Below, in pieces: positions 1,181 to 20,000 of a DNA stretch of 20,000 nt. The notes beneath the pieces are model-generated. The model did not search any database. It was not told the origin of the DNA and was given only the letters and a program-made list of their open reading frames with translations. The position numbers were made by a program, and so were the translations under genes. The first letter of the stretch is position 1. Every line of letters starts with the position of its first letter. The stretch comes from an uncultured virus (IMG/VR IMGVR_UViG_3300045180_000051) (lineage: Duplodnaviria; Heunggongvirae; Uroviricota; Caudoviricetes). The stretch lies in the IMG/VR virus record IMGVR_UViG_3300045180_000051; one strand, given 5' to 3'.

Positions 1181-1573
1181 ATGCGACATCCGGAATGGGA
1201 AAAACGCCTCGTGGCCGTCACGGAGGCGCACATAAACACGCCTCTGGTCTGGGGAAAGTCTGATTGTCTTCTCACCACATCCGACGCGATTGAAGCGGTT
1301 ACGGGCATCGATCCTGCATCTGAAGTGCGAGGCAAATACAAAAGCCGCGCAGGTGCCTATCGCCTAATTAAACAGCGGGGTTTTTCCAGCTTAAGCGCCG
1401 TTCTGGCTGATCATTTCGAGGAAACGCCTGTTGCGATGGCGCAGCGGGGTGACGTTGGTATTTTTGAGAAAACTGTTGGCTACTTCTGTGAATACGGCTT
1501 CGCGGTGAAAGGCGAGGACGGTTTGCGCTTCCTGCCACGCACAATGGCCGAGAGGGCCTTCAAGGTTTCCTGA
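1181..1573 (+). CDS. Tail-assembly protein, NlpC/P60-like (DUF6950-like)
   Basis: 130 aa with 'WGKSDC' and 'AQRGDVG' motifs; overlaps the next start codon (TGATG). Confidence 0.7.
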   Translation: MRHPEWEKRLVAVTEAHINTPLVWGKSDCLLTTSDAIEAVTGIDPASEVRGKYKSRAGAYRLIKQRGFSSLSAVLADHFEETPVAMAQRGDVGIFEKTVGYFCEYGFAVKGEDGLRFLPRTMAERAFKVS

Positions 1574-4194
1574 TGTTTTACATTCTGGCGATTTTATTCG
1601 CGCTGTTGGCAACACCAGCGGCGGCGGACCCTGTTTCTATTGTGACAGGTCTTGTTGGCCTTGGCTCGTGGCTGTTCGGCGGTACTGTCCTTGCAAACAT
1701 TGTGCTTGGCGGACTTCTGGTCGCCGCAAAATACGCGCTCACGTCAATCTTTCAGCAGACGCCCAAGTCTTCGGCATCTGCCACAGAAACCAAATATGGT
1801 GAAAATCTCGTCCGTGAAGTCGGCCTCGGCGTATTTGGCACAATGGGGCATCACGTCTATCGCAATGCATTCGGTAAGGGCAACCGAATGGTGCAGGACG
1901 TGTTCAAGCTTTCCGACTTCCGCTGTGTTGAGCTTTTGCGCGTGCAGATGGATGGCGAGTGGAAGAGCCTTAGTCCAACCGATCAAACCTATGGACGTAA
2001 ACTTCTTAACGTCCACGAAGGTGGCGAAGTCTGGGTTCGCTTCTATCAGGGAACGATGCAGCAAGCTGCCGACCCTCAGCTAATTGCGAATTCTAATCCT
2101 TCGGGACGTTGGACTTCTGCGCATCGTGGGGCAGGTATCTGCTACGTCGTGGTTACGTCCCGCATGGAGGCCGATAATCTGACTTCGCCGCCGAGCCTTA
2201 TGTTCGAGGTTCGTGGCGCTCCATTGTATGACCCGCGAAAAGACAGCACGGTTGGTGGATCAGGAACTCAGCGCAGAAACAATCAGGATAGCTGGGCTTT
2301 CTCCGATAATCCTGCTGTCATGATGTATAATCTTGAACTAGGCATCTACAACGGCACGGAAAAGATCGTTGGTCGAGGCGTTGCGCAGAGCCGTTTGCCT
2401 TTGTCTGAATGGTTCACCGCGATGAATATCTGCGATGAAGCCATGTCAGACGGTAGCAAGCGCTATACGGCAGCATTGATTGCTTCATCTGGCGACGGGG
2501 TTACGCACGAAACCAATATGACGCCACTGCGCGAAGCTTGTGCAGGATCTTGGATTGAAGGCGTGACAGGTGAGTATCCAATCGTCGGCGCTAATCAGGC
2601 AGTCGTTGCGACGATCACTGATGACGATATCGCTTGGGAGAAGTCTTTCCAGCTGTCGTTAACGCGCACCCGGACTGATCTGGTCAACACTGTTGCGGCT
2701 TCTTATGTCAGCCCAGACTTGTTTTATGAAACCACGTCGCTCACCACGCGCGTTGATGCAGCTGCATTGGCTCAGGATCGCGAGCGACTGGCTTCCAAGG
2801 TGGATTACACTGCCGTCACTGATCCGCGAGTAGGCGACCGTCTGGCAGATATCGCGATCCGGGCCTCACGCTATCAGGCGAACGGCAACTTTACCGTGCA
2901 TCCGAAGTTCCTTGGACTGCAGGTTGGCCAGTGGGTTCAATGGGTATCAGCTCGCTATAACCGCACGATCAAGTTTCAGGTTCATTCGAAAGCCCTTGGC
3001 GCAATGGGCAGCGACAGTGTTCGCGATGTTTCAATCTCGTGGCAGGAGGTTGGCGACGGTATCTTTGATCCGACAGCTTATGCAACAAATCCGCCTGTTC
3101 CAACGCCGAATGGCGATCCGGATTATCTTGCTGAGGTCCAAAACTTCAACGCCGTCGCTAACAAGGTAATTGGCGCTGATGGTCAAGAGCATCCCGGCAT
3201 TCGGTTGTTCTGGGATGCGATTGACGACATCACTGTCGAAGGTGTTGACATCCAGTATTGGCCCGACAATGACCCGTCACAGGTATTCTCGTCGTTCGTG
3301 ACCAAAGATGTAACCGTCTTTCAGATCGTGAATGGTCTGACGAGCATCACTGATTGGTGGGTTAGAACAAGGCTTAGGGTGGCTTCGGGCACTCGTCCTG
3401 TGGCTTGGTCTGCTGCAGTCAAGGTGGCAACTCTCGACGCTCGACGCGAGGACAGCCCTGTCGATTTTCCGCGACTGGATGACGATGTCAAAGGCCTCGT
3501 TAACTACATGACAGATGACTTGCGTGAGTTCAAAAGGCAGGCGCAGGAAAACGCAACAACGTCGGCAAGTGGACTATTGGATGCGTATTCTAATGTCCAG
3601 ACAATCAGACGTGAGCTTACGAACACGTTTGGAACGGCTAAAGCATCATGGCAGGAAGATATCTTAACTGCCACAGGCCCAAACAGCGCCATTGGGCAGC
3701 AACTAACGCAGATCAATGTAAGCCTTGGCACGAAGGCCGATGCAAGCACTGTTGTACTTCTTCAGAGCCGAGTTGATGGCGTCCAAGGCGATATGACTGC
3801 CATTTCCAATGCGCTGACTGAGGTCAATGCGTCGGTCAACGATATCAACGCGAATGGATCTCTGCGCTTTACGGCCACGTCGGGGAGCGGCGGGGCTTCA
3901 AGTAGAATTGCTGCGTTAGCACGGGTTGGGATCGGTGACAGTTGGAAGCAAGCCGGTTGGTTCGTAAATGTTACTCAAACTTCGAGCCAGTTTGTTGTCA
4001 TTGCCAATCAGTTCGCCATCGCAGATCCGAATACTGACGGCAGCTTCACGTATCCGTTTGTTGTCGAGAATGGACGTGTCGTGATGGAAAATATCGTTGT
4101 AGGGACCGTGAAGTTTAAACGGCTTCAGTCCGATAACAACAAATTCGACGCACGCGGCGATGGAAACAATGCGTATCTGAGGATTATCGTTTAA
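1573..4194 (+). CDS. Tail tip / host-specificity protein (lambda gpJ-like central fibre)
   Basis: 873 aa; motifs 'HRGAGICY', 'VRGAPLYDPR' and 'SDNPA'; FnIII-like middle region, coiled-coil region and a gpJ-like C-terminus (ANQFAIAD..PFVVENG). Confidence 0.85.
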   Translation: MFYILAILFALLATPAAADPVSIVTGLVGLGSWLFGGTVLANIVLGGLLVAAKYALTSIFQQTPKSSASATETKYGENLVREVGLGVFGTMGHHVYRNAFGKGNRMVQDVFKLSDFRCVELLRVQMDGEWKSLSPTDQTYGRKLLNVHEGGEVWVRFYQGTMQQAADPQLIANSNPSGRWTSAHRGAGICYVVVTSRMEADNLTSPPSLMFEVRGAPLYDPRKDSTVGGSGTQRRNNQDSWAFSDNPAVMMYNLELGIYNGTEKIVGRGVAQSRLPLSEWFTAMNICDEAMSDGSKRYTAALIASSGDGVTHETNMTPLREACAGSWIEGVTGEYPIVGANQAVVATITDDDIAWEKSFQLSLTRTRTDLVNTVAASYVSPDLFYETTSLTTRVDAAALAQDRERLASKVDYTAVTDPRVGDRLADIAIRASRYQANGNFTVHPKFLGLQVGQWVQWVSARYNRTIKFQVHSKALGAMGSDSVRDVSISWQEVGDGIFDPTAYATNPPVPTPNGDPDYLAEVQNFNAVANKVIGADGQEHPGIRLFWDAIDDITVEGVDIQYWPDNDPSQVFSSFVTKDVTVFQIVNGLTSITDWWVRTRLRVASGTRPVAWSAAVKVATLDARREDSPVDFPRLDDDVKGLVNYMTDDLREFKRQAQENATTSASGLLDAYSNVQTIRRELTNTFGTAKASWQEDILTATGPNSAIGQQLTQINVSLGTKADASTVVLLQSRVDGVQGDMTAISNALTEVNASVNDINANGSLRFTATSGSGGASSRIAALARVGIGDSWKQAGWFVNVTQTSSQFVVIANQFAIADPNTDGSFTYPFVVENGRVVMENIVVGTVKFKRLQSDNNKFDARGDGNNAYLRIIV

Positions 4195-5735
4195 TGGTCA
4201 GTTGGTTTGTAGGTTGGAAACCGGGCGTGGGCGCGGTGATGAAAGTCAATAAATATGACAGTGATTGGCCGTTAGACGTCCCGAATGATGCTCATAACCG
4301 CTTCTATTTCAACTCGGAGGCAAGCAATCTTTCGTATGTTTTTCGCCATTTCCAGACAGCAAAACGGCTAAACAAAGCAGACTATCCCAACGGGAACTAC
4401 GGTTTAGTTTCTAATTCCCTTAGCGATGCATGGGTAATGCAGACGACGACAGGTTCATTCGATGTCAACGAATATCGGATCTACGGCTGCATAGGAAGGA
4501 TGCCAGACCTCGGCGGGATAATACCGTTCGCCGAGTGCAAGTTTATATCCTCAGATGGAACTGCTCGCGTCCTTTACAATAACAAGCCGAGCAGTTCCGG
4601 CGCATATTATCAGTCTGTCACCAACTCAGCTATTACAGCGAACGTCTATCCAGAAGCGCACCAAGGCAAATTCGGTTATCAGGATATTCCCGCGGCGCTT
4701 GGTTATTCAGGTTGGGCAATCAGACCGACCAATCAAGCGGCCGGGATTGTTGCCTACATCGGCGGCGACCAGGAGTTCATGACGTCCATGATCTGGGATC
4801 TACCTTGCAATAATGTGCCGATACCCAGACCGAGCGGAACGCCTGTGAGCGGGCAAATCATGTTTGAAGCATCGCCCACTCGAATAAAGCTGGCAAGGCC
4901 GGGGTTTTCCATCGACACGGCTACGGGCCGACAACTGATCATGGATAGCGACAGAACGCCGATCAAAGTGATCATGATGGGGACCACGGGAGCGGTGCAG
5001 CCCGGCACAAGTTTGTTTGTTCCGAAGCCATCCTCAATCGACTTCGATCTCTCGCCATCGATGGTCTGTGACACGATCTGCAGCCTGAATGGTTGGGATT
5101 TTGCAATCCCTCCAGTCAACCTCAATAGCGGGCTAAACGAGGAAAGAACGTGGGTTGACTATCGTGTTGAGCTCGGTGGCATTCGTTTCTTTGTGACGGG
5201 AACGCACGCTGTTTCCATCAAATATATGCTCTATGCGACCGGGTTGCAGGGGTATTCATCTGGGGGCAGCGCTATAATCCGGAAGGTCGAAGGGCAATAC
5301 CTGCAGATCAAACGACCGGGTTCGAGCGATGTGGCGCCCGGCTATAACGATATCCTTCTTGATACTCGCTTCGCAGCCGTTACCGTTCTCGCTGAAAGTT
5401 ATGTACCAACGTCAAGCTTTACTGAAAGCGCTTCGGTGCATTGGCGATATGGCAAGGTTGGTCATCGGATAAACTTCGATCCTCAAGGCCTCTTTATCTT
5501 CCCGAAGGTCATTTATGATTTCGGCAATTTCTACCGCAACGGCACGCATGACATGTATATCACGCCGGGGAGTGGAGCTGTCGAAGCTTTGCGATACTCG
5601 ACTTCAACCGTTGTGCGTGACGATCACATCATCATGCATATGAACCCCGGAAACTCGTCGGGGCCAGTCAACAGCAGCGGTTTCCCTGAACCCGTCGGCG
5701 CTCGTTATTTCATCCTCGGAGCTGCAACGCTCTAA
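4194..5735 (+). CDS. Putative tail receptor-binding / baseplate-associated protein
   Basis: 513 aa, coupled to the tail-tip gene (TAATG). Rich in aromatic and beta-forming residues, with an internal degenerate repeat (IKLARPGFS..LIMDS / LQIKRPGSS..ILLDT). Confidence 0.55.
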   Translation: MVSWFVGWKPGVGAVMKVNKYDSDWPLDVPNDAHNRFYFNSEASNLSYVFRHFQTAKRLNKADYPNGNYGLVSNSLSDAWVMQTTTGSFDVNEYRIYGCIGRMPDLGGIIPFAECKFISSDGTARVLYNNKPSSSGAYYQSVTNSAITANVYPEAHQGKFGYQDIPAALGYSGWAIRPTNQAAGIVAYIGGDQEFMTSMIWDLPCNNVPIPRPSGTPVSGQIMFEASPTRIKLARPGFSIDTATGRQLIMDSDRTPIKVIMMGTTGAVQPGTSLFVPKPSSIDFDLSPSMVCDTICSLNGWDFAIPPVNLNSGLNEERTWVDYRVELGGIRFFVTGTHAVSIKYMLYATGLQGYSSGGSAIIRKVEGQYLQIKRPGSSDVAPGYNDILLDTRFAAVTVLAESYVPTSSFTESASVHWRYGKVGHRINFDPQGLFIFPKVIYDFGNFYRNGTHDMYITPGSGAVEALRYSTSTVVRDDHIIMHMNPGNSSGPVNSSGFPEPVGARYFILGAATL

Positions 5736-5758
5736 CAATCCGAAAATCGGAGAATATA

Positions 5759-6943
5759 ATGGCTGTTTTGTCAGATTACACCTCTGGCAGGATTTCGCTC
5801 GCCAACGGTTCGGTTACTGTTACCGGCACCGGAACGCTGTTTAATGTTGCGAAATTCCGTGAAGGCGACACGCTACAAATTCAAAACCTGACAGCGGTCA
5901 TTGCGAGTGTGAACAGCGATACCTCGCTGACGCTTACAGCGCCGTGGACGGGGACAACTCTCACCAATGCTGTATATCGCGCTCGCTATCTTCCTGACGG
6001 TGCTCGTGTGACCGCCCAGGCAACAACTCTTATTGAGCTTCTTGGGAATGGCAACCTGCAGTCGCTAGCTGGTCTGACGGGAGCCGCGGACAAAGGCATC
6101 ATGTTCACAGGCGCGGGAACTGCCGGAACGTTTGATCTAAGTGAAATTGGACGGAGAATTGCGGCAATTACCGATGGCGTTTCATCGCAAATCATTCAGG
6201 GAGATGGAACGCGGGTTGCTAAATCATCTTTGCCAATTAGCGCTGCTACACAAACTGCCCTTGATGCTAAGGCACCGATAGCTACCCCTGTTTTTCAAGG
6301 TCAAACGGATATCTTGAGGGGTAGTTTACGTTTTCGTGGCGACCAAAACGTCAATCAAAATCTTATTGTTGTTCAGGAGTTTGGCACTCAACGATGGGGA
6401 ATAGATTACGTCTATACTGACCAGTCTCTCCGAATTCAAGCTTTTACGGGAGGCACTTGGACGGGTGAAGCGGTCATTTTCAGACCCAACAAAAGTGTAG
6501 CTTTTCTTGGAACAATCTCAAAGGCTGGCGGCACTTTCGAAATTGATCACCCGTTGGACCCCTTCAACAAAAATCTGCGCCATGGATTTGTTGAAAGTAC
6601 GGAATATGTGAACATTTATCGCGGTATGGTCGATCTTGTTGATGGGCGAATGTCTGTCGATATTGATGCTGCTTTCGGCATGACGGATGGAACCTTCGCA
6701 GCGCTCAACGCTGACGTGATAGTTTCATCATTGCAAAACCAGTATGGGCCGGATCGCGTATGGGTCGAGGCTCCAGCCGACAGCGGCAAATTCACCATTA
6801 TCTGTGAAGATACGGAAAGCACGGCAACTATCGCTTGGATGGTGACTGGACGCCGTAATGATGCCTTTGTGCGTTCTGATCTCGATCCGAATACCGACAG
6901 TGAAGGCCGGTTCATTCCAGAGTTTGACAAGGAGGATGCATAA
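5759..6943 (+). CDS. Tail fibre protein
   Basis: 394 aa with GGAG RBS. N-terminal 'GSVTVTGTGTLF..SLTLTAPWTG' anchor, then 'PISAATQTALDAKAP', then a C-terminal 'FEIDHPLDP..LRHGFVES' domain found in fibres. Confidence 0.8.
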   Translation: MAVLSDYTSGRISLANGSVTVTGTGTLFNVAKFREGDTLQIQNLTAVIASVNSDTSLTLTAPWTGTTLTNAVYRARYLPDGARVTAQATTLIELLGNGNLQSLAGLTGAADKGIMFTGAGTAGTFDLSEIGRRIAAITDGVSSQIIQGDGTRVAKSSLPISAATQTALDAKAPIATPVFQGQTDILRGSLRFRGDQNVNQNLIVVQEFGTQRWGIDYVYTDQSLRIQAFTGGTWTGEAVIFRPNKSVAFLGTISKAGGTFEIDHPLDPFNKNLRHGFVESTEYVNIYRGMVDLVDGRMSVDIDAAFGMTDGTFAALNADVIVSSLQNQYGPDRVWVEAPADSGKFTIICEDTESTATIAWMVTGRRNDAFVRSDLDPNTDSEGRFIPEFDKEDA

Positions 6944-7425
6944 TGTCCGTAACGCAGCAGGTTCCAGACTTGTCAGGTCTGGGAAAAAAAGGTCTGCCGA
7001 TGCATTACCAAGCGTTCGGTATCGAACCGCCTATGAAGACCGTTCCGGTTGAAGATGGCGAACCTGTCACCGACAACCCCGGCATGACGATACCAGAGTA
7101 CGTAGCGGCAAAGCGCTGGGAGGCAGAGGTCGGTGGAATTGAGGTTGATGGATTGCTCATAGCTACCGACGATCGCTCAAAGATGATGATCTCAGGCGCT
7201 CGCGTTGCTGCACAGGGAAATCCAGAATTTTCCACTCAATGGAAAACGGCGACGGGAGAGTTTCTTATGGTCGACGCTGCAACAATCATCGCAGTTAGCG
7301 ATGCTGTTCTCGATCATGTCGCCCAGTGCTTTGCTGTTGAAGCTTCAATCACAGCAGATATTAAAACGGGCGTCGATTTCACGTTCGCGGATATTGATGA
7401 AATCTTTGCTCGCCATTTTCCCTAA
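6943..7425 (+). CDS. Tail fibre assembly protein (DUF4376-like)
   Basis: 160 aa with 'AAKRWEAEVGGI..TDDRS..WK..G.F..HVAQCFAVE' pattern; follows the fibre gene. Confidence 0.8.
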   Translation: MSVTQQVPDLSGLGKKGLPMHYQAFGIEPPMKTVPVEDGEPVTDNPGMTIPEYVAAKRWEAEVGGIEVDGLLIATDDRSKMMISGARVAAQGNPEFSTQWKTATGEFLMVDAATIIAVSDAVLDHVAQCFAVEASITADIKTGVDFTFADIDEIFARHFP

Positions 7426-7437
7426 CTGACAGACCGC

Positions 7438-7457
7438 ACCGCCCTTGAGGCGGTTTT
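7438..7457 (+). terminator. Rho-independent terminator of the tail operon
   Basis: ACCGCC-CTTGA-GGCGGT followed by TTT, just after the stop codon at 7425. Confidence 0.7.
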
Positions 7458-7555
7458 CACACCCTGCGCCATATCCAAAAGCAGAGAGCAAGAGCAAGTA
7501 GCGCTATAATCGCCAGCAGCGCGATGTTGTCTTCCATAACGTCAATCAGAAACAT
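7457..7555 (-). CDS. Small hydrophobic single-TM peptide (32 aa)
   Basis: Hand translation: MFLIDVMEDNIALLAIIALLALALCFWIWRRV. RBS GGAGGGG just upstream and a TATACT -10-like hexamer at 7579-7584. Confidence 0.65.
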   Translation of the reverse strand: MFLIDVMEDNIALLAIIALLALALCFWIWRRV

Positions 7556-7597
7556 TTGCCCCTCCACTTATCGCGCTAAGTATAACGGGCAATTGTG

Positions 7598-7672
7598 AAA
7601 GAAAAACCCCAGACACCGGCGGGGGGGCTGGGGTTGCACCGCCTCTATAGCCCCCGCAAGGCGAGTGCAACC
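7598..7672 (-). ncRNA. Putative sRNA unit 1
   Basis: Stems AACCCCAG(7605-12)/CTGGGGTT(7628-35) and TGCAC-CGCCT/AGGCG-A-GTGCA (7635-7669). A-tract at 7598-7606 gives a U-tail on the minus strand. Confidence 0.6.
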
Positions 7673-7727
7673 GTCCTTTACCATAAGGTAAAATATTAAC
7701 AGTCCCTACTTTGTGATTAGATCTCAC

Positions 7728-7799
7728 AAAAAAACCCCGATCTGCTTGGGGGCTGTACCGGGGTCTGCGCTTTGTTGCCTTTGGGGTGCAACATTGCGC
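7728..7799 (-). ncRNA. Putative sRNA unit 2
   Basis: Stems ACCCCG(7734-39)/CGGGGT(7759-64), extended by a G:U pair only on the minus strand, and GCGC-tt-TGTTGC/GCAACA-tt-GCGC (7767-7799). A7 tract. Confidence 0.6.
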
Positions 7800-7825
7800 C
7801 TGTTCATCATTTCAGAATGTGGCGG

Positions 7826-7911
7826 AAAAGAAAAGCCCCGGCATGTGGAATGAAGGATAGCACGAGCCGGGGCTTGCGCATCAACGGGCATGCAGTTGTC
7901 TCAGCGCGCAA
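7826..7911 (-). ncRNA. Putative sRNA unit 3
   Basis: Stems AAGCCCCGGC(7833-42)/GCCGGGGCTT(7866-75) and TTGCGC(7874-79)/GCGCAA(7906-11). Upstream on the minus strand, TG-C-TATTGA resembles an extended -10. Confidence 0.6.
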
Positions 7912-7933
7912 TCTCAATAGCAAAAAATGCAAG

Positions 7934-8009
7934 AAATAAAACCCCGGCAGGATCGCACAACCATGCCGGGGTTGCGTTCAAAAGCAATTATCAGGACCCG
8001 TTGAACGCA
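7934..8009 (-). ncRNA. Putative sRNA unit 4
   Basis: Perfect stems AACCCCGGCA(7940-49)/TGCCGGGGTT(7964-73) and TGCGTTCAA(7973-81)/TTGAACGCA(8001-09). Upstream on the minus strand, TG-C-TAATTT resembles an extended -10. Confidence 0.65.
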
Positions 8010-8034
8010 GCCTCTAAATTAGCAACGGCTATAC

Positions 8035-8150
8035 AAAAAGAAAAGCCCCAGAGGCGCTTGAAATCTCTGGGGCCTGACCCGGCAGGCGGGCAGCCATGAA
8101 CCGGGGTTACTCACGTTACATTCAAGCGGGGGCTGTGATGCCGTGAATAA
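8035..8150 (-). ncRNA. Putative sRNA unit 5 (three hairpins)
   Basis: Stems GCCCCAGAG/CTCTGGGGC (8045-73), CCCGG/CCGGG (8078-8105) and TTACTCACG/CGTGAATAA (8107-50; G:U on the minus strand). Candidate promoter TTGACG-N16-TAATTC at 8183-8156. Confidence 0.65.
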
Positions 8151-8155
8151 GCAAC

Positions 8156-8184
8156 GAATTAGCGCCCATGTTTTCAACGTCAAG
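8156..8184 (-). promoter_or_regulatory. Sigma70-like promoter for unit 5
   Basis: CTTGACG-N16-TAATTC on the minus strand, close to the alphaproteobacterial CTTGAC-N17-CTATAT consensus. Confidence 0.5.
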
Positions 8185-8189
8185 GGCGG

Positions 8190-8274
8190 AAAAATAAAAC
8201 CCCAGCTCGTGGGTAATCATTCCGAGCTGGGGCTTATCACTGGTGCAACACGAGCAACTGCTTCGATACAGTGA
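8190..8274 (-). ncRNA. Putative sRNA unit 6
   Basis: Stems CCCCAGCTCG(8200-09)/CGAGCTGGGG(8223-32) and TCACTG(8237-42)/CAGTGA(8269-74). Candidate promoter TTGCCT-N16-TAGTTT at 8310-8283. Confidence 0.6.
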
Positions 8275-8318
8275 ATGGTTAGAAACTAGGGCGGAAAAAT
8301 GATGAGGCAAGATCAGAT

Positions 8319-8392
8319 AAAAACCCCGGCCAGCGGGGGCTGAACCGGGGCCGCGCACCGGGATTGAAGCTGAGGAGCTCGGGACGGCGCGC
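8319..8392 (-). ncRNA. Putative sRNA unit 7
   Basis: Minus strand reads GCGCGCCG..CGGUGCGC (with G:U), then GGCCCCGGU-U-CAGC-CCCC-GCUG-GCCGGGGUUUUU. Upstream TG-T-GAGAAT resembles an extended -10. Confidence 0.6.
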
Positions 8393-8433
8393 AGGCAAAT
8401 ATTCTCACAACCTTATGAAAAGGCAATGCTTCG

Positions 8434-9099
8434 CTAGAACTTGTAAGCAATGCCGAGTGTAGCGGTATGTTGGCTTAGACGGCGAGCCCAATCCCTAACA
8501 AGATCTTGTTTGCCGAAGTCGTTGTAACGATATGCAACGCGACCGATGATGTTTTGTGTGATTGCCCAATCCGCTCCAGCGCCAATGTTCCAGCCATTTC
8601 TGTCTATATCTGACTTGGCGTATGAAGAAAGATAACCCGGAGTGACGGCATCGCTCATTAGGCTAAACCAGCCCCGTGAGTATCCAGCAGTGATGTAGGG
8701 CAGATACTGTCCGAAGGCGTAGCCAAGGCGTCCATTGACCGACGCTGTCGCTTTTGACCGAAATCTCTCTTGGAAATAAGCATCGTCACTTGCGGTGTTT
8801 AACACCCAAGGAAGTTTGTCAGCTTTGAATTCGCCGCCTGTGAATTCTACGGAAACTTCTGGACCGAATACCCACTGGCCATGTTGGAAATTGTATCCGA
8901 CATAGCCGCCACCTGTGACGTTAGCGCCGTCCGCACTGTAATATTGGTTCCAAATATCAAACGGTGTGTCTGTCTTCGCTTTAGACCATCTCGCACCGAT
9001 GCTCACGCCCCCATAGATGCCGGACCAGTCAAATGTCTCGGCAACAGCGGTGTTCGTCCACGCGGCAGCGACAACGGTAACAATAAGTAAATGCTTCAC
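8434..9099 (-). CDS. Outer-membrane beta-barrel protein, Omp25/Omp31/RopB family
   Basis: 221 aa; GTG start with GGGGAG RBS; signal peptide; motifs 'FDWSGIYGG', 'GGYVGYNFQ', 'GRLGYAFG..LPYITAG' and 'GWNIGAGADWA'; C-terminal YKF BamA signal. Confidence 0.9.
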   Translation of the reverse strand: MKHLLIVTVVAAAWTNTAVAETFDWSGIYGGVSIGARWSKAKTDTPFDIWNQYYSADGANVTGGGYVGYNFQHGQWVFGPEVSVEFTGGEFKADKLPWVLNTASDDAYFQERFRSKATASVNGRLGYAFGQYLPYITAGYSRGWFSLMSDAVTPGYLSSYAKSDIDRNGWNIGAGADWAITQNIIGRVAYRYNDFGKQDLVRDWARRLSQHTATLGIAYKF

Positions 9100-9177
9100 A
9101 GAAATCTCCCCAAGCCTGCCCAGCGCGGAGAGTATGACGAGAATTTCAAATCTGCAACTCTAAGAAAGTAAATCGAA

Positions 9178-9258
9178 AAGGCTGCCGTCACTAAAGCGAT
9201 ACCGCATGTCTTCACGGATGAAGGCGACTACGTTTACAACCCGAAAGACCCGGGCGGC
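9178..9258 (+). pseudogene. Remnant N-terminus of a GH108-family lysozyme
   Basis: The frame from 9181 reads AAVTKAIPHVFTDEGDYVYNPKDPGG, matching the GH108 EGGY(V/S)xxPxDPGG motif. There is no start codon (TAA at 9169-71), and similarity ends after DPGG. Confidence 0.7.
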
Positions 9259-9302
9259 GTAGTGCCCGGCTGCACAATCTTCTTTTTTGTCTTAGCGAAA
9301 AA

Positions 9303-9662
9303 TTATTCGCACTGATACCGGGCCTCATACTGCGGCTCGAAGACAAGAGAAATGTCGTTAACCCGACAGGTGCGGCCCTTTGATGCTAGGAATGCTTCTG
9401 CCGCATCACGGTAGACCACTTCGGCGTTCATTGGATTGTAGGCTCCGAACGTTGCTCCTTTAACAACTCCACCTCCAAAGGAAGCGCCTAAGGTGGGAGT
9501 TATCATTAAGCGGTTTTCAGTCGGCTTATCGTAAATCCGATATCCAGTGCCTGATGGCGCTGTATACGACACCGGCTTAACGCTCGAATAGTGCTGCATA
9601 GCATAGTTCGCACCTGCGCATCCCGTCAGCGCTAGCAGCGCCACAATTCCCAAACGTTTCAT
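9303..9662 (-). CDS. Lipoprotein moron (119 aa)
   Basis: Likely start MKRLGIVALLALTGC (lipobox LTG-C) at 9662 with GAGGGCGGGA upstream. The longer ORF-track start overlaps the endolysin gene. Confidence 0.75.
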   Translation of the reverse strand: MKRLGIVALLALTGCAGANYAMQHYSSVKPVSYTAPSGTGYRIYDKPTENRLMITPTLGASFGGGVVKGATFGAYNPMNAEVVYRDAAEAFLASKGRTCRVNDISLVFEPQYEARYQCE

Positions 9663-9703
9663 TCCCGCCCTCACAAGTTGTGGCGGCAATCTAGGACAAT
9701 CAA

Positions 9704-10567
9704 ATGAACAAAACAACGTTCTTCGCGTATGCGAGGCGCGCGCCTTTTGGCGGCCGTTTGAGCCAGGCTCAGGTTGATGGCACATCGGCTATCTTGGCCG
9801 AAGCCGAGCGCCGCAATTTACCCGACGAGCAGACCGCCTATATCCTTGCGACTGTCTTTCATGAGACTGGCGGCAAGATGCAGCCGGTCATCGAGAATCT
9901 GAACTACACCAGTGCGGCGCAAATTCGGAAGACATGGCCAAAGCGCTTTTCGTCAATCGCATCGGCCCAGCCATATGTTCGCCAGCCTCAAAAGCTCGCT
10001 AATAAGGTCTATGGCGGCCGCATGGGTAACGACAGCGTTAATGACGGCTGGACTTATCGCGGGCGAGGCCTGCCTCAGATTACAGGCGAGGACAACTACA
10101 AGAAGTTCGGTATTGCCGATGCGCCAGAGAAGGCGCTGGAGTTAGCCACGGCAATCCGTATCCTCTTTGAAGGCATGGTGCTGGGCAAGTTCACTGGGCG
10201 CAAGCTGAGTGACTTTTTCGGCAAGGGCAAAACAGATCCTGAAGGCGCGCGTGTCATCGTCAACGGCACCGACAAGGCCACGCTGATCTCCGGCTATTAT
10301 CGCAACTTCCTAGACAGCCTGATTGCTGCGCGGGAAATGAAGGCCGCTGCTCCTGATGACGCCAAGCCTGACGACGTGCCTTTGCTCAAGGATAAGACGG
10401 TGCAGACCATCGTCGCAGCTGGTGGCGGTACGTTCTTGACTGGCCTTATCAGCGCCGTGTCGAACCCGTGGGCATTCTTGACAGTCGCACTAGTGCTCGT
10501 CGCCATCGGTGGCGGTTTCTGGCTCTGGCATACAGACAGGCTCGAACTGAAGAGGGTGGCGGCGTGA
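9704..10567 (+). CDS. Endolysin, glycoside hydrolase family 19 (chitinase-like), with C-terminal hydrophobic segments
   Basis: GH19 motifs 'YILATVFHETG', 'ENLNY', 'ANKVYGGRMGN', 'YRGRGLPQITG' and 'VNG'; AGGA RBS. Confidence 0.9.
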   Translation: MNKTTFFAYARRAPFGGRLSQAQVDGTSAILAEAERRNLPDEQTAYILATVFHETGGKMQPVIENLNYTSAAQIRKTWPKRFSSIASAQPYVRQPQKLANKVYGGRMGNDSVNDGWTYRGRGLPQITGEDNYKKFGIADAPEKALELATAIRILFEGMVLGKFTGRKLSDFFGKGKTDPEGARVIVNGTDKATLISGYYRNFLDSLIAAREMKAAAPDDAKPDDVPLLKDKTVQTIVAAGGGTFLTGLISAVSNPWAFLTVALVLVAIGGGFWLWHTDRLELKRVAA

Positions 10568-11705: not shown

Positions 11706-12470
11706 TCAGTTGGGCGCGGTAAAACGACGGAAGGATGGCGTCACATGATCTTCGCGATCCTTCTCAAGCATTCGCAACATGTTTTCACCGTACCCTGGCA
11801 CCGCATAAACACTTATCGTTCTAATATTGTTCTTCCCCAGTCCAGTCTTTAGGTAGTGCTCACTAACAGCTGTCGGACGTGGAGGACGTGGCGACAGTAT
11901 TTCAATAAAGCAGCCTCCGAACATAAACGTAAGGTTTACGCCATTCTTGTTTCGGAGGATGCGTGGCGAAAGCATTATCTTTGCTAAATTGACGTCATTG
12001 CCGTGAATATGATCAAATAATCGGCTTATTCTCACGGCATAATGAGCCAATGACTTGTGTGAATTATCCGAAAAAAGAGATTTGATTTGATCCTCGTGAT
12101 GACGGGATAATTTGAAATTCTGATAAAACTCAGCGTCACTTTTACTGGCTCGCCAAGCAACTGATAACATTGCACGAGAAATTGAACGAGCGTCGTTAGC
12201 ACATATAGTTCGTTGTCTATCTAATTTTTCAATAATTTGCTGCAGTGGTATATCAAAATTGACATTGAAATGGCTCTCACATTCAGCGCAGAGCATCGGG
12301 CAGTCACCGCTAGCTTGCGTTACGCTATTTGGAGAGTTGTCAGTTTTATATTTTACTGCCTGACCATTACTCTTTGCGGATCGAAAATAGCTGTTGGGAA
12401 TTGCATGTGATCTGGAGAGCTTTTTCTCTTGCTGGCAAAATGCGCAAACTCCGATTGTCGCCTTCGACAT
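11706..12470 (-). CDS. HNH-like Zn-binding putative nuclease (AT-rich moron)
   Basis: CAFC..SHAIP..LCAECESHFN pattern (CxxC/H/CxxC). Visibly lower GC than its neighbours and antisense to the flanking operons. Confidence 0.6.
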   Translation of the reverse strand: MSKATIGVCAFCQQEKKLSRSHAIPNSYFRSAKSNGQAVKYKTDNSPNSVTQASGDCPMLCAECESHFNVNFDIPLQQIIEKLDRQRTICANDARSISRAMLSVAWRASKSDAEFYQNFKLSRHHEDQIKSLFSDNSHKSLAHYAVRISRLFDHIHGNDVNLAKIMLSPRILRNKNGVNLTFMFGGCFIEILSPRPPRPTAVSEHYLKTGLGKNNIRTISVYAVPGYGENMLRMLEKDREDHVTPSFRRFTAPN

Positions 12471-12511
12471 GCAAATCCCCCCCCCCGAATCCTAAATTTC
12501 ACCCATCATAC

Positions 12512-16423: not shown

Positions 16424-16436
16424 GTCACGACCAGGG

Positions 16437-16513
16437 AAAGCCCCGGCACGAGAGGTGTGATCGGGTTGCCGGGGCTGCGCTTCGCGTGGACCCAGCTTCC
16501 TGTCACGAAGCGC
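16437..16513 (-). ncRNA. Solitary copy of the array-type sRNA unit (unit 8)
   Basis: Stems AGCCCCGGCA(16439-48)/TGCCGGGGCT(16467-76) and GCGCTTCGCG/CACGAAGCGC (16477-16513; G:U on the minus strand). TG-A-TAGAAT extended -10 at 16528-16520. Confidence 0.6.
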
Positions 16514-16593
16514 GGCAAAATTCTATCAAAATGAATTTTCATTGAAAAGTGCATTTTAACTCTGTTGGGTCGCCACAGATGCAATGCCTAGCT

Positions 16594-18857: not shown

Positions 18858-20000
18858 TTGGCTAAAATTAAGAAGCGTTCGTGGGAAAACGCGAGCGGAA
18901 AACACGAAGCGTGGCAGTTAGATTTCACTGACAGGCATGGGAAGCGTCATCGAGAACAGTATGCAAAGAAACGCGAAGCCGAAGCCCGTCTTTCTGACCT
19001 TGTGAGTGCGACAGGTGCCGCGACATACAAAGAAGCAGCTCAAAAGACGACCGTAGCTGACGTATGCGTTGATTACTATGAGGAGATGGAGAAGCGCAAC
19101 AAACGTGGTGAAAGCGTTGTTCAGTCGTATCTCCGCACCACAAAACAGCACATCGATAATTGGATTGATCCAAAAGAGGAAAGCGCTGTCGGCTTCACCA
19201 AAGGAATCGGAACCAAAACACTGTCGGAACTGACGACGGCGGACGTGATAAAGCTTAGGAATGAAATGCGCGATGCTTCAGCCGGAGTTGTCACGACACG
19301 GCGTGTTCTCGGAACGCTGAGTCGTATTCTGAAACATGGCGTTGAGACGGATAAGGTGGGCGTCAATGTCGCAAAAGGTGTTCGAGTTATTGGCAAGCGC
19401 GATGAGGCTGGAGATAAGGTAACACCACCTTCAAAGGTTGATCTCGCTGAGATCCTTAAGAAGGCTGATGACAAATTAGCGCTACGAATCAGGTTCGCTG
19501 CTTCATCAGGCCTGCGAGCTTCTGAGCAATGGGCGCTACGTTGGGTGCATCTCGATCTGAAAAATGGCTTCGTCTCAGTCGAAACGCGCGTGGATGCGTA
19601 CGGTGAATTCGACACGACGAAATCATCTGCTGGTCGTCGCACTGTCCCAATCGGGAAGGCGATGCTTGAGCAGTTAAAATCTTGGAAAGGTGAAACGAAG
19701 CACAGCGCGCCTGACGACTTCGTTTTCACTGACAGCAAGGGCGGCTTTGTACGCCACACCAACTTTATGAAGCGCGATTGGAAACCCACAATTAAGCGCG
19801 CAGAAGTTGAAGATATCGGCTGGCACGCTCTTCGACACTTCGCTATTTCGACTTGGATTGAGGCTGGCCTTACACCCAAAGCTGTGCAGACATTGGCCGG
19901 TCATGCGAGCTATGCCATTACGATGAATCGCTATGGCCATCTCTTCCCCTCAGACGATCATAAAGCCGCGTTCGACAGGATTGCGGAAACACTCGCATGA
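18858..20000 (+). CDS. int: Phage tyrosine integrase
   Basis: 380 aa with a TTG start; arm-binding-like N-terminus; catalytic R (GLRASE), K (TTKS), HxxR (HALRH), H (AGH) and Y (RYGH); stop codon at 19998-20000. Confidence 0.93.
   Translation: MAKIKKRSWENASGKHEAWQLDFTDRHGKRHREQYAKKREAEARLSDLVSATGAATYKEAAQKTTVADVCVDYYEEMEKRNKRGESVVQSYLRTTKQHIDNWIDPKEESAVGFTKGIGTKTLSELTTADVIKLRNEMRDASAGVVTTRRVLGTLSRILKHGVETDKVGVNVAKGVRVIGKRDEAGDKVTPPSKVDLAEILKKADDKLALRIRFAASSGLRASEQWALRWVHLDLKNGFVSVETRVDAYGEFDTTKSSAGRRTVPIGKAMLEQLKSWKGETKHSAPDDFVFTDSKGGFVRHTNFMKRDWKPTIKRAEVEDIGWHALRHFAISTWIEAGLTPKAVQTLAGHASYAITMNRYGHLFPSDDHKAAFDRIAETLA

Follow-up and report, generated by a model that had tools for sequence, protein, structure and literature searches.

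The 20,000-nucleotide stretch of an uncultured Caudoviricetes virus analysed here (IMG/VR record IMGVR_UViG_3300045180_000051, hereafter the window) carries on its minus strand an array of seven head-to-tail units at 7598-8426, about 800 bp read from 8426 to 7598, and an eighth, solitary unit elsewhere in the same prophage (16431-16526, also minus strand). We think it fairly probable that this array is a prophage battery of independently transcribed small RNAs (sRNAs) of 75-113 nt. They would form a family not described before, whose modules reassort and whose loops are often C-rich. All eight units follow one plan: a -10-like box, a 5' hairpin, a terminator hairpin CCCC(A/G)G...C(C/U)GGGG and a U-tract, the latter with four to seven U in the array. 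An original prediction made from the letters of this DNA had described seven units and a solitary copy sharing one architecture, and pattern searches, a stem finder and a covariance model all agree with it. A 5' hairpin precedes every array terminator. The two-hairpin layout that was then proposed holds for the units generally, with the exception of unit 5, which has three hairpins in all.

The array pattern is real and far beyond chance. The pattern CCCCRG-N5-35-CYGGGGYTTT matches seven times in the window, always on the minus strand (six times at 7603-8350 and once at 16437-16474), for an expectation of zero in 200 shuffles of the window. It misses the terminator of unit 2 (7766-7732) because the 3' arm of this hairpin is AUCGGGG. 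A relaxed stem finder includes it and returns seven minus-strand terminators between 8352 and 7605, with GC-rich stems of 8-12 bp directly followed by T4-7, as is characteristic of intrinsic terminators. A standard terminator scan, restricted to loops of 3-8 nt, recovers only those of units 1 and 7. The mean column identity among units is 40%, the sole invariant columns being CCCC.G...GGGG.TTT, and Tandem Repeats Finder (TRF) reported no repeat array at 7598-8392 with a score of at least 30. By both measures the array falls outside the class of tandem direct repeats, such as type III antitoxin arrays or CRISPR. The region had been said to lack a credible open reading frame (ORF), and indeed its six mechanical ORFs (54-78 aa) all extend across terminators, and none matches a Pfam or PHROG family at E<0.1. 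No tRNA genes were found by a scan of the window.

We searched for relatives by scanning IMG/VR with the endolysin, which gave 57 related prophage loci. In these, strong terminators cluster just upstream of the endolysin gene, on the opposite strand, with 0 to 11 per locus, and the distance from the end of a terminator to the stem of the next one has a sharp mode at 62-71 nt. We trained a covariance model (R1) on the 13 members of a unit family (A3) of other prophages, with no unit of the window included. In the 20-kb window, R1 matched each of the eight units along the whole model, always on the minus strand (16.8-30.6 bits, E 2.8e-6 to 0.025), and matched nothing else on either strand. The predicted common scaffold is therefore recovered by a model made from the units of other prophages. 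Across 33 sources (267 kb), 115/115 matches at E<=0.05 lie on the expected strand, as do 23/24 matches in 28 further loci. At least one unit is present in 36/54 endolysin-anchored loci, and the largest arrays, which as in the window are flanked by tail-fibre and endolysin genes, have 9-10 R1 matches.

One could argue that these are DNA-level palindromic repeats (REP/BIME or the rhizobial intergenic mosaic) or recombination sites, acting as DNA or as mobile repeats. There are two adjacent palindromes per ~100-bp unit, the 5' hairpin region folds equally on both strands, and the modules recombine. We nevertheless regard this explanation as very unlikely. All units have one orientation, their T-tracts and -10 boxes are strand-specific, and their low identity and the empty TRF report speak against a DNA repeat. 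Their distribution is also narrow. A blastn search of the array found 0/401 genomes sampled from the order of G002 (the genome of related locus L005), and a two-unit tandem pattern found 0/401 genomes sampled from its family. The same pattern occurs in only 18 stretches among the 2.9 million viral contigs of IMG/VR, mostly of this phage group, and in 29 stretches of a metagenome collection, of which about nine are true arrays. Finally, whole genomes of the G002 family were sampled with R1 (61 genomes, 70 candidates scored in each), and 3 of them gave a match at E<=0.001, one match in each; the prophage's own host genome lay outside these samples.

On the minus strand, 7/8 units are more stable than all, or almost all, of their shuffles (z -2.4 to -5.0). 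From unit 7 down to unit 1 the z values are -5.0, -4.2, -3.6, -3.6, -2.4, -3.6 and -0.6 (the last not significant), and that of the solitary unit is -2.6. Stems were predicted to keep pairing in spite of sequence change, and the units of other prophages bear this out by covariation: compensatory double changes affect 9/20 pairs in A3 and 6/22 pairs in A1 (7 units). They affect 0/25 pairs in the family of unit 4 (A2), 2/23 in that of unit 7 (A6), both in the terminator, and 1/19 in that of unit 3 (A7). In A3, 95.0% of the cells pair, against 88.6% when shuffled (0/500 shuffles reach the observed value) and 29-46% when slid. In a model-fitted alignment of 124 matches, which leans towards structure, the proportion is 95.1% against 76.5% when shuffled. 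In A2, 6/6 one-sided changes yield G:U on the sense strand. The argument that G:U pairs reveal selection on the minus-strand RNA proved weak. The sense minimum free energy (MFE) structures have 22 G:U in 214 pairs against 13 in 197 for the other strand, and across 60 units the folding energy of the 5' hairpin region has no strand bias. A strand test on the G:U pairs of terminators (139 G:U against 10 A.C) was discarded: G:U pairs had been permitted when the terminators were selected, which biases the count. The strand is set by the U-tracts and -10 boxes, not by wobble pairs.

The original prediction also gave each unit its own promoter, and comparison between units supports this. Among 103 non-redundant units (<80% identical in the region), the consensus 5' of the hairpin is T(58) A(81) T(58) n n T(63), followed after 6 nt by G(75), the first base of the hairpin. 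The zone 13-21 nt upstream of this TATnnT box is the T-tract of the preceding terminator, which thereby overlaps the -35 zone. The TTTTCTT that follows the terminator is itself conserved, with C as the fifth base in 13/17 representatives. In seven homologues of unit 5, CTTGAC-N16/17-CTAnnT is kept while the spacer has diverged, and these boxes fit the sigma-70 consensus of S. meliloti, reported as CTTGAC-N17-CTATAT (PMC2873474). In family A1, the TTGTGAGATGAT block is conserved. The -10-like hexamers named for the window are all present: GAGAAT/GAATAT at 8399-8406, TAGTTT at 8283-8288, TAATTC at 8156-8161 and TAATTT at 8016-8021.

From this geometry we propose that the host sigma-70 RNA polymerase would start at the TATnnT box, which 6-7 nt separate from the G that opens the 5' hairpin, using a -35 zone that shares its sequence with the T-tract of the preceding terminator. 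Transcription would then stop at the unit's own CCCCRG hairpin and U-tail, giving RNAs of 75-113 nt. The 5' end of such an RNA would be protected by a hairpin, and its 3' end would consist of the terminator and U-tail. A terminator-plus-U-tail 3' end is the usual Hfq-type module.

The loops of the units suggest how such RNAs could act. On the sense strand they are C-rich and G-poor (C 0.32-0.36, G 0.16-0.23), and among 143 terminator loops CCCC is found in 20 and GGGG in 4. Half of the window's tracts of at least five C are inside the array (5/10), and GCCCCCGC occurs three times in the window, always in the array, against 0.76 expected. The claim that all loops differ is thus right in that they are heterogeneous and wrong in that several share C-rich motifs. 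The motif AGCCCCCGCU, a small GC-clamped stem with a CCCC tetraloop, recurs in the first hairpin of unit 5 and in the terminator of unit 7, and in other phages it is found within hairpins with different stems. In A3, the single-stranded loop GACGYGACUGG is conserved while the stems vary. We suggest that the RNAs would act in trans via exposed loops, many of them C-rich (CCCC tetraloops on a GC clamp, CUCCUC, C7). By analogy with C-rich-loop sRNAs elsewhere, such loops could prevent the translation of host or phage mRNAs by pairing with their G-rich ribosome-binding regions, a mechanism that we offer tentatively and hold to be possible rather than probable.

One pairing was kept as a lead only. 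A run of ten G lies on the minus strand at 12477-12486, 6 nt before the ATG of the gene at 11706-12470 (minus strand; 254 aa, PHROG 7075), the expected ribosome-binding position; the homologue in locus L056 has G5. Unit 1 pairs with this leader at -46.5 kcal/mol, for a shuffle minimum of -44.3, through its C7 loop and the G10 tract. The tract could be slippage-prone or could be a docking site for C-rich loops. The unit 1 loop GCGGGGGCU is also complementary to the AGCCCCCGC present in units 5 and 7. That sRNAs and their sponges are paired within an array was considered and rejected, since complementary runs of at least 8 nt between loop interiors are found in 1/284 within-array pairs against 48/6856 pairs between loci. 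In locus L084 (reverse-complemented), the terminator loops AUGGACCUCCGA and UUCUGGGAGGUC of the neighbouring units 402-431 and 502-529 are complementary over 7-8 nt, a kind of pair that shows no overall enrichment.

Several observations weigh against a battery of trans-acting sRNAs. Guide-like loops had been predicted, and a search of the window and of 664 kb of related DNA identified no target for them: the matches of the units to the window by blastn-short were at chance level, duplex energies against 25 start regions were at chance level bar that of unit 1 with the G10 leader, and perfect matches of at least 12 nt between 17 loop segments and the 664 kb were also at chance level. The TATnnT consensus is anchored on R1 alignments whose first columns favour TAA. 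A sigma-70 scan found no promoter inside the array, the consensus used being of the E. coli type; at 7000-9500 it returned a single site, within the outer-membrane protein (OMP) gene next to the array, against 2.4 expected. Part of the R1 score comes from the terminator, the E-values are rough, and two units of the window reach only E 0.02-0.03. Unit 1 is no more stable than its shuffles, unit 3 folds better on the plus strand, and in the 48 nt before the terminator of 60 units, 27 have the lower energy on the sense strand and 33 the higher (mean z -1.4). The families containing units of the window (A2, A6, A7) vary little, and 18/54 endolysin-anchored related loci have no unit at all. Lastly, the stretch is contained in 22 RNA-labelled runs of ant metagenomes, which are kept as contigs. 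In the four runs that we checked, all 30 bins of the window are at similar depth, tail genes included. Since these contigs cover the 20 kb evenly, they show neither transcription nor its absence.

The lack of an mRNA target in the window and the 664 kb would suit transcribed units that serve as decoys or sponges for a protein, such as an RNA chaperone, an RNase or a defence protein. The scaffold would then be the functional part and the loops would drift freely. The conserved part is indeed the scaffold (GC-closed 5' hairpin, CCCCRG terminator, UUUUCUU), and multiple copies suit titration. Yet loops are kept while stems vary, as with GACGYGACUGG in A3 and AGCCCCCGC across hairpins with different stems, which is the pattern of a base-pairing seed. 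Moreover, no candidate gene for a partner protein is linked to the arrays. We consider decoys improbable.

We give equally little weight to the possibility that the array is debris, that is, promoters and terminators left behind by the gain and loss of accessory genes, or at most a stack of terminators shielding the tail operon from transcription of the OMP gene. Turnover of accessory genes is concentrated in this slot, where related loci carry different protein genes, and the loci devoid of units are as one would expect from such turnover. Unit 7 terminates the OMP gene, unit 5 looks like a fusion that has retained an extra terminator, and the RNA-labelled runs, being contigs, give no expression signal either way. 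Debris would not, however, keep the 62-71-nt spacing, a -10 box at a fixed 6 nt, covarying 5' hairpins and conserved loop motifs. Insulation needs one terminator only, and no ORF remnants were detected in the array.

The distribution of the putative sRNA units among prophages indicates how the arrays diversify. Homologues of units 3-7 are found in loci L012, L013, L014, L019/L020, L024, L025 and L061, with a distribution that differs unit by unit. Units 1 and 2 have no homologue (for unit 2, among 55 loci). The 5' hairpin of unit 5 has three different 3' ends across phages, that of unit 6 is joined to the 3' part of unit 5 in L013, L014, L024 and L067, and in L067 an unrelated 5' hairpin precedes the unit 3 terminator. 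These combinations indicate that 5' hairpins and terminators reassort between arrays as modules. Swapping had been predicted for the loops; it is whole 5' hairpins and terminators, not loops alone, that are swapped. The exchange would take place at the conserved CCCCGG and TTTTCTT joints. In runs X2-X4, contigs branch within unit 5 at 8078 and 8114 into an L009-type mosaic (the hairpin of unit 6 with the 3' part of unit 5), and therefore two variants of the array coexist in those samples.

One may go further and see in the arrays a recombining library of riboregulator cassettes of Brucellaceae temperate phages. Each cassette would be a minimal gene, whose T-tract doubles as the upstream part of the next promoter and whose modules are exchanged at the CCCCGG / TTTTCTT joints. 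The seeds would silence host envelope genes or rival phages (RNA-based exclusion), and with modules exchanged between prophages each lysogen would thus carry its own set of seeds. We find this extension rather unlikely, though less so than decoys or debris. If true, it would describe an accessory system that is programmable and needs no protein, comparable in function to gene-cassette arrays. If the units are transcribed, as we favour, temperate phages of Brucella/Ochrobactrum carry up to ten different, reshuffled riboregulator genes in less than 1.5 kb. This would be a compact means to rewire host gene expression or exclude rivals, and would add an unrecorded RNA family to a bacterial group whose RNA regulation matters both medically and ecologically. 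That a terminator overlaps the next promoter would be a design rule for very dense packing of RNA genes.

The individual units, all on the minus strand, are as follows in the order of reading. Unit 7 (8318-8426) has a -35 box TTGCCT at 8426-8421, a 16-nt spacer and a -10 box GAATAT at 8404-8399 with TG upstream. Its predicted RNA (8392-8318) comprises a 5' hairpin GCGCGCCG...CGGUGCGC with the apical part GAGCU-CCUC-AGCUU and a terminator CCCCGGUU-CAGC-CCCC-GCUG-GCCGGGG followed by U5. It has the best R1 score (30.6 bits, E 2.8e-6). In its family, the apical loop of the 5' hairpin has a C-run of 6 in L021, L025 and L069, 7 in L051 and 9 in L084; in the window and in L020 it is CUCCUCA instead of a C-run. 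Unit 7 begins 8 nt past the stop codon of the OMP gene, and would therefore also terminate the OMP mRNA. Unit 6 (8194-8310; R1 16.8 bits, E 0.025) has TTGCCT at 8310-8305 and TAGTTT at 8288-8283, separated by 16 nt. Its RNA (predicted at ~8277-8194) has a 5' hairpin CACUG...CAGUG and a 13-bp terminator with a 13-nt loop, in which one pair is A-U in the window and G-C in L002/L004. Unit 5 (8038-8184; R1 17.1 bits, E 0.021, with the alignment on hairpins 2 and 3) has CTTGAC at 8184-8179 and, after 16 nt, CTAATT at 8162-8157. The first hairpin of its predicted RNA (~8150-8038) has the apical part AGC-CCCC-GCU, the second is CCCGG...CCGGG and has lost its U-tract, and the third is the terminator CCCCAGAG...CUCUGGGG.

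Unit 4 (7934-8037; R1 26.4 bits, E 4.5e-5) has its -10 box TAATTT at 8021-8016 and its -35 zone inside the T-tract of unit 5. In its predicted RNA (~8011-7934), the 5' hairpin UGCGUUCAA...UUGAACGCA is followed by the terminator. Unit 3 (7829-7933; R1 23.4 bits) has a -10-like TATTGA at 7919-7914 with TGc upstream, which in homologues is TATACT or TATTTA; its predicted RNA (~7910-7829) has a 5' hairpin closed by GCGC and a terminator loop of 23 nt. For unit 2 (7724-7828; R1 19.5 bits, E 0.004), the -10-like box is AATGAT at 7811-7806 or, alternatively, TGAAAT at 7814-7809. The RNA predicted at ~7802-7724 has the 5' hairpin GCGC..GUUGC-ACCCCAAAG-GCAAC..GCGC and the terminator loop ACAGCCCCCAAGCAG. 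Unit 1 (7598-7723; R1 20.3 bits, E 0.003) has an extended -10 box TGtTAATAT at 7701-7693. The 5' hairpin of its predicted RNA (~7687-7598) is GGUUGCAC...GUGCAACC, with the above-mentioned GCGGGGGCU in the loop, and its terminator is CCCCAG-CCCCCCCGCCGGUGU-CUGGGG. An inverted repeat TTTGTGA-N7-TCACAAA at 7710-7730 overlaps the T-tract of unit 2 and the -35 zone of unit 1, and looks like the operator of a dimeric regulator. The solitary unit (R1 28.7 bits, E 9.8e-6) has TAGAAT at 16525-16520, a 5' hairpin closed by GCGC, a hairpin CCCCGGCA...UGCCGGGG and a weak U-tract CUUUCCC.

The array had been placed in a moron slot between tail and lysis genes, and PHROG matches of the tail-fibre and endolysin genes confirm this position. 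The plus strand encodes tail and tail-fibre proteins upstream of the array (1573-7425; PHROG 5616, E 9.5e-196, and PHROG 10508) and an endolysin downstream of it (9704-10567; PHROG 181), and an integrase gene lies at 18858-20000. The minus strand of the tail-lysis gap holds, besides the array, a lipoprotein-like gene, an outer-membrane beta-barrel gene and a 32-codon hydrophobic ORF. The beta-barrel (OMP) gene, a moron directly upstream of the array (8434-9099, 221 aa; PF13505, E 7.8e-15), encodes an Omp25/31-like product that is 50% identical to a Brucella anthropi outer membrane protein. For the endolysin, the identity is 92% with a Brucella sp. NBRC 12950 protein and 90% with a B. pituitosa protein. 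From these identities the host is an Ochrobactrum-type member of Brucella sensu lato. The probable lipoprotein gene (9303-9785), an envelope moron, has a lipobox match at residues 45-57, and therefore its true start is probably later. Its product faintly resembles Cor superinfection-exclusion proteins (PHROG 1119, E 0.14).

Immediately after unit 1, on the same strand, the 32-codon ORF (7555-7457) has a strong GGAGGGG ribosome site and encodes the hydrophobic peptide MFLIDVMEDNIALLAIIALLALALCFWIWRRV, which could be a small membrane protein or a toxin-like peptide. It has no Pfam or PHROG family at E<0.1, and the tail-fibre operon, at its end, shares the hairpin that lies 3' of this ORF. The array of L009 is adjoined by another small hydrophobic ORF (~5720-5627, minus strand), which differs from this one and also has a GGAGGGG site. 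The position of these ORFs raises the question of whether the array is a cis-acting leader, an attenuator chain gating OMP transcription into the peptide ORF. Yet the L009 ORF lies upstream of its array, not downstream, and most arrays have no such ORF after them. In addition, each unit has its own -10 box, and seven full terminators in series leave essentially no read-through. Of all the explanations weighed here, this is the one that we believe least.

Tandem sRNA genes and prophage sRNAs are known already; what is new here is the family and the packing of the units in the array. To our knowledge, the small RNAs described from prophages so far are single cases, nearly all of them enterobacterial. 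As predicted, the units belong to no described family: neither the window nor any of 16 related loci has a match at the gathering score of an Rfam family, a search of annotated phages by blastn with the array gave no match, and our literature searches on prophage sRNAs of Rhizobiales or Brucella/Ochrobactrum listed no such array. The terms "tandem", "array" and "alphaproteobacteria" are absent from the main text of a 2025 review of phage-derived sRNAs (PMC12197685).

Among the known systems, cuckoo / alpha-r14 RNAs of Rhizobiales and Rhodobacterales are described as 2-4 adjacent hairpins of 24-50 nt, free of multiloops and with variable stems, whose loops carry C/U-rich anti-Shine-Dalgarno-like motifs, the defining one being CCUCCUCCC; they are multicopy, also in Brucellaceae, and some are clustered (PMC4615179). 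The MFE structures of our units also consist of 2-3 adjacent hairpins, some with small inner stems. Unlike cuckoo RNAs as described, they have their own promoter-like box and terminator, heterogeneous loops and a prophage location. The constant loop motif of cuckoo RNAs had been noted as absent, and CCUCCUCCC at up to 2 mismatches is indeed at chance level (43 occurrences in the window against 42.4 expected, one of them, 8081-8089, in the array). The alpha-r14 covariance model gave no match over 7400-8500 even at E<=10.

The nearest known gene layout is that of NsiR1 (RF02399) of heterocystous cyanobacteria, where 60-nt sRNA genes with their own promoters are reported to lie head-to-tail, in 12 copies in Anabaena (PMC4030482). 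According to this description, NsiR1 copies are near-identical direct repeats on the chromosome with one developmental type of promoter, whereas our units are 40% identical and phage-borne. The NsiR1 model scored three units of the window at 14.2-18 bits for a gathering score of 39 (E 1.1-8.8), which is noise level. The nearest system in likely mode of action, as a C-rich-loop sRNA, is LhrC1-5 of Listeria monocytogenes, described as a multicopy sRNA of two hairpins in which a redundant C-rich motif (UCCC) is displayed by the first loop, by the linker and by the loop of the terminator; this motif binds Shine-Dalgarno regions, and the terminator loop can be the seed (PMC4132741). LhrC is, by this account, chromosomal, from a Firmicute and nearly identical between copies with one regulon, unlike our array, and we found neither a sequence nor an Rfam match between the two. 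Apical C-runs that pair with G-rich mRNA leaders are also described for sX13 (Xanthomonas, RF02232), GsrN (Caulobacter) and 6C (Actinobacteria). These resemble our units in their C-run apical loops and differ in being single chromosomal genes; the sX13 model gave 15 bits on unit 7 (8318-8442) for a gathering score of 50 (E 4.5).

In genomic setting, the array is most readily compared, by description only, with the Pas sRNAs of lambdoid prophages of pathogenic E. coli, which lie beside tail or capsid genes and are reported to have been spread and diversified by phage recombination, with pasA copies at least 22 kb apart and not in tandem (PMC13192938). Our array is likewise beside tail genes, in a different bacterial class, and differs in consisting of up to 10 unlike units at a pitch of 100-150 bp. 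IpeX, of the cryptic prophage DLP12, is described as a single 167-nt RNA processed from the transcript of a phage porin gene, at its 3' end, and controlling a host porin (PMC12197685). The likeness, again by description, is that unit 7 abuts a phage-borne OMP gene; the difference is that most related arrays have no adjoining OMP gene.

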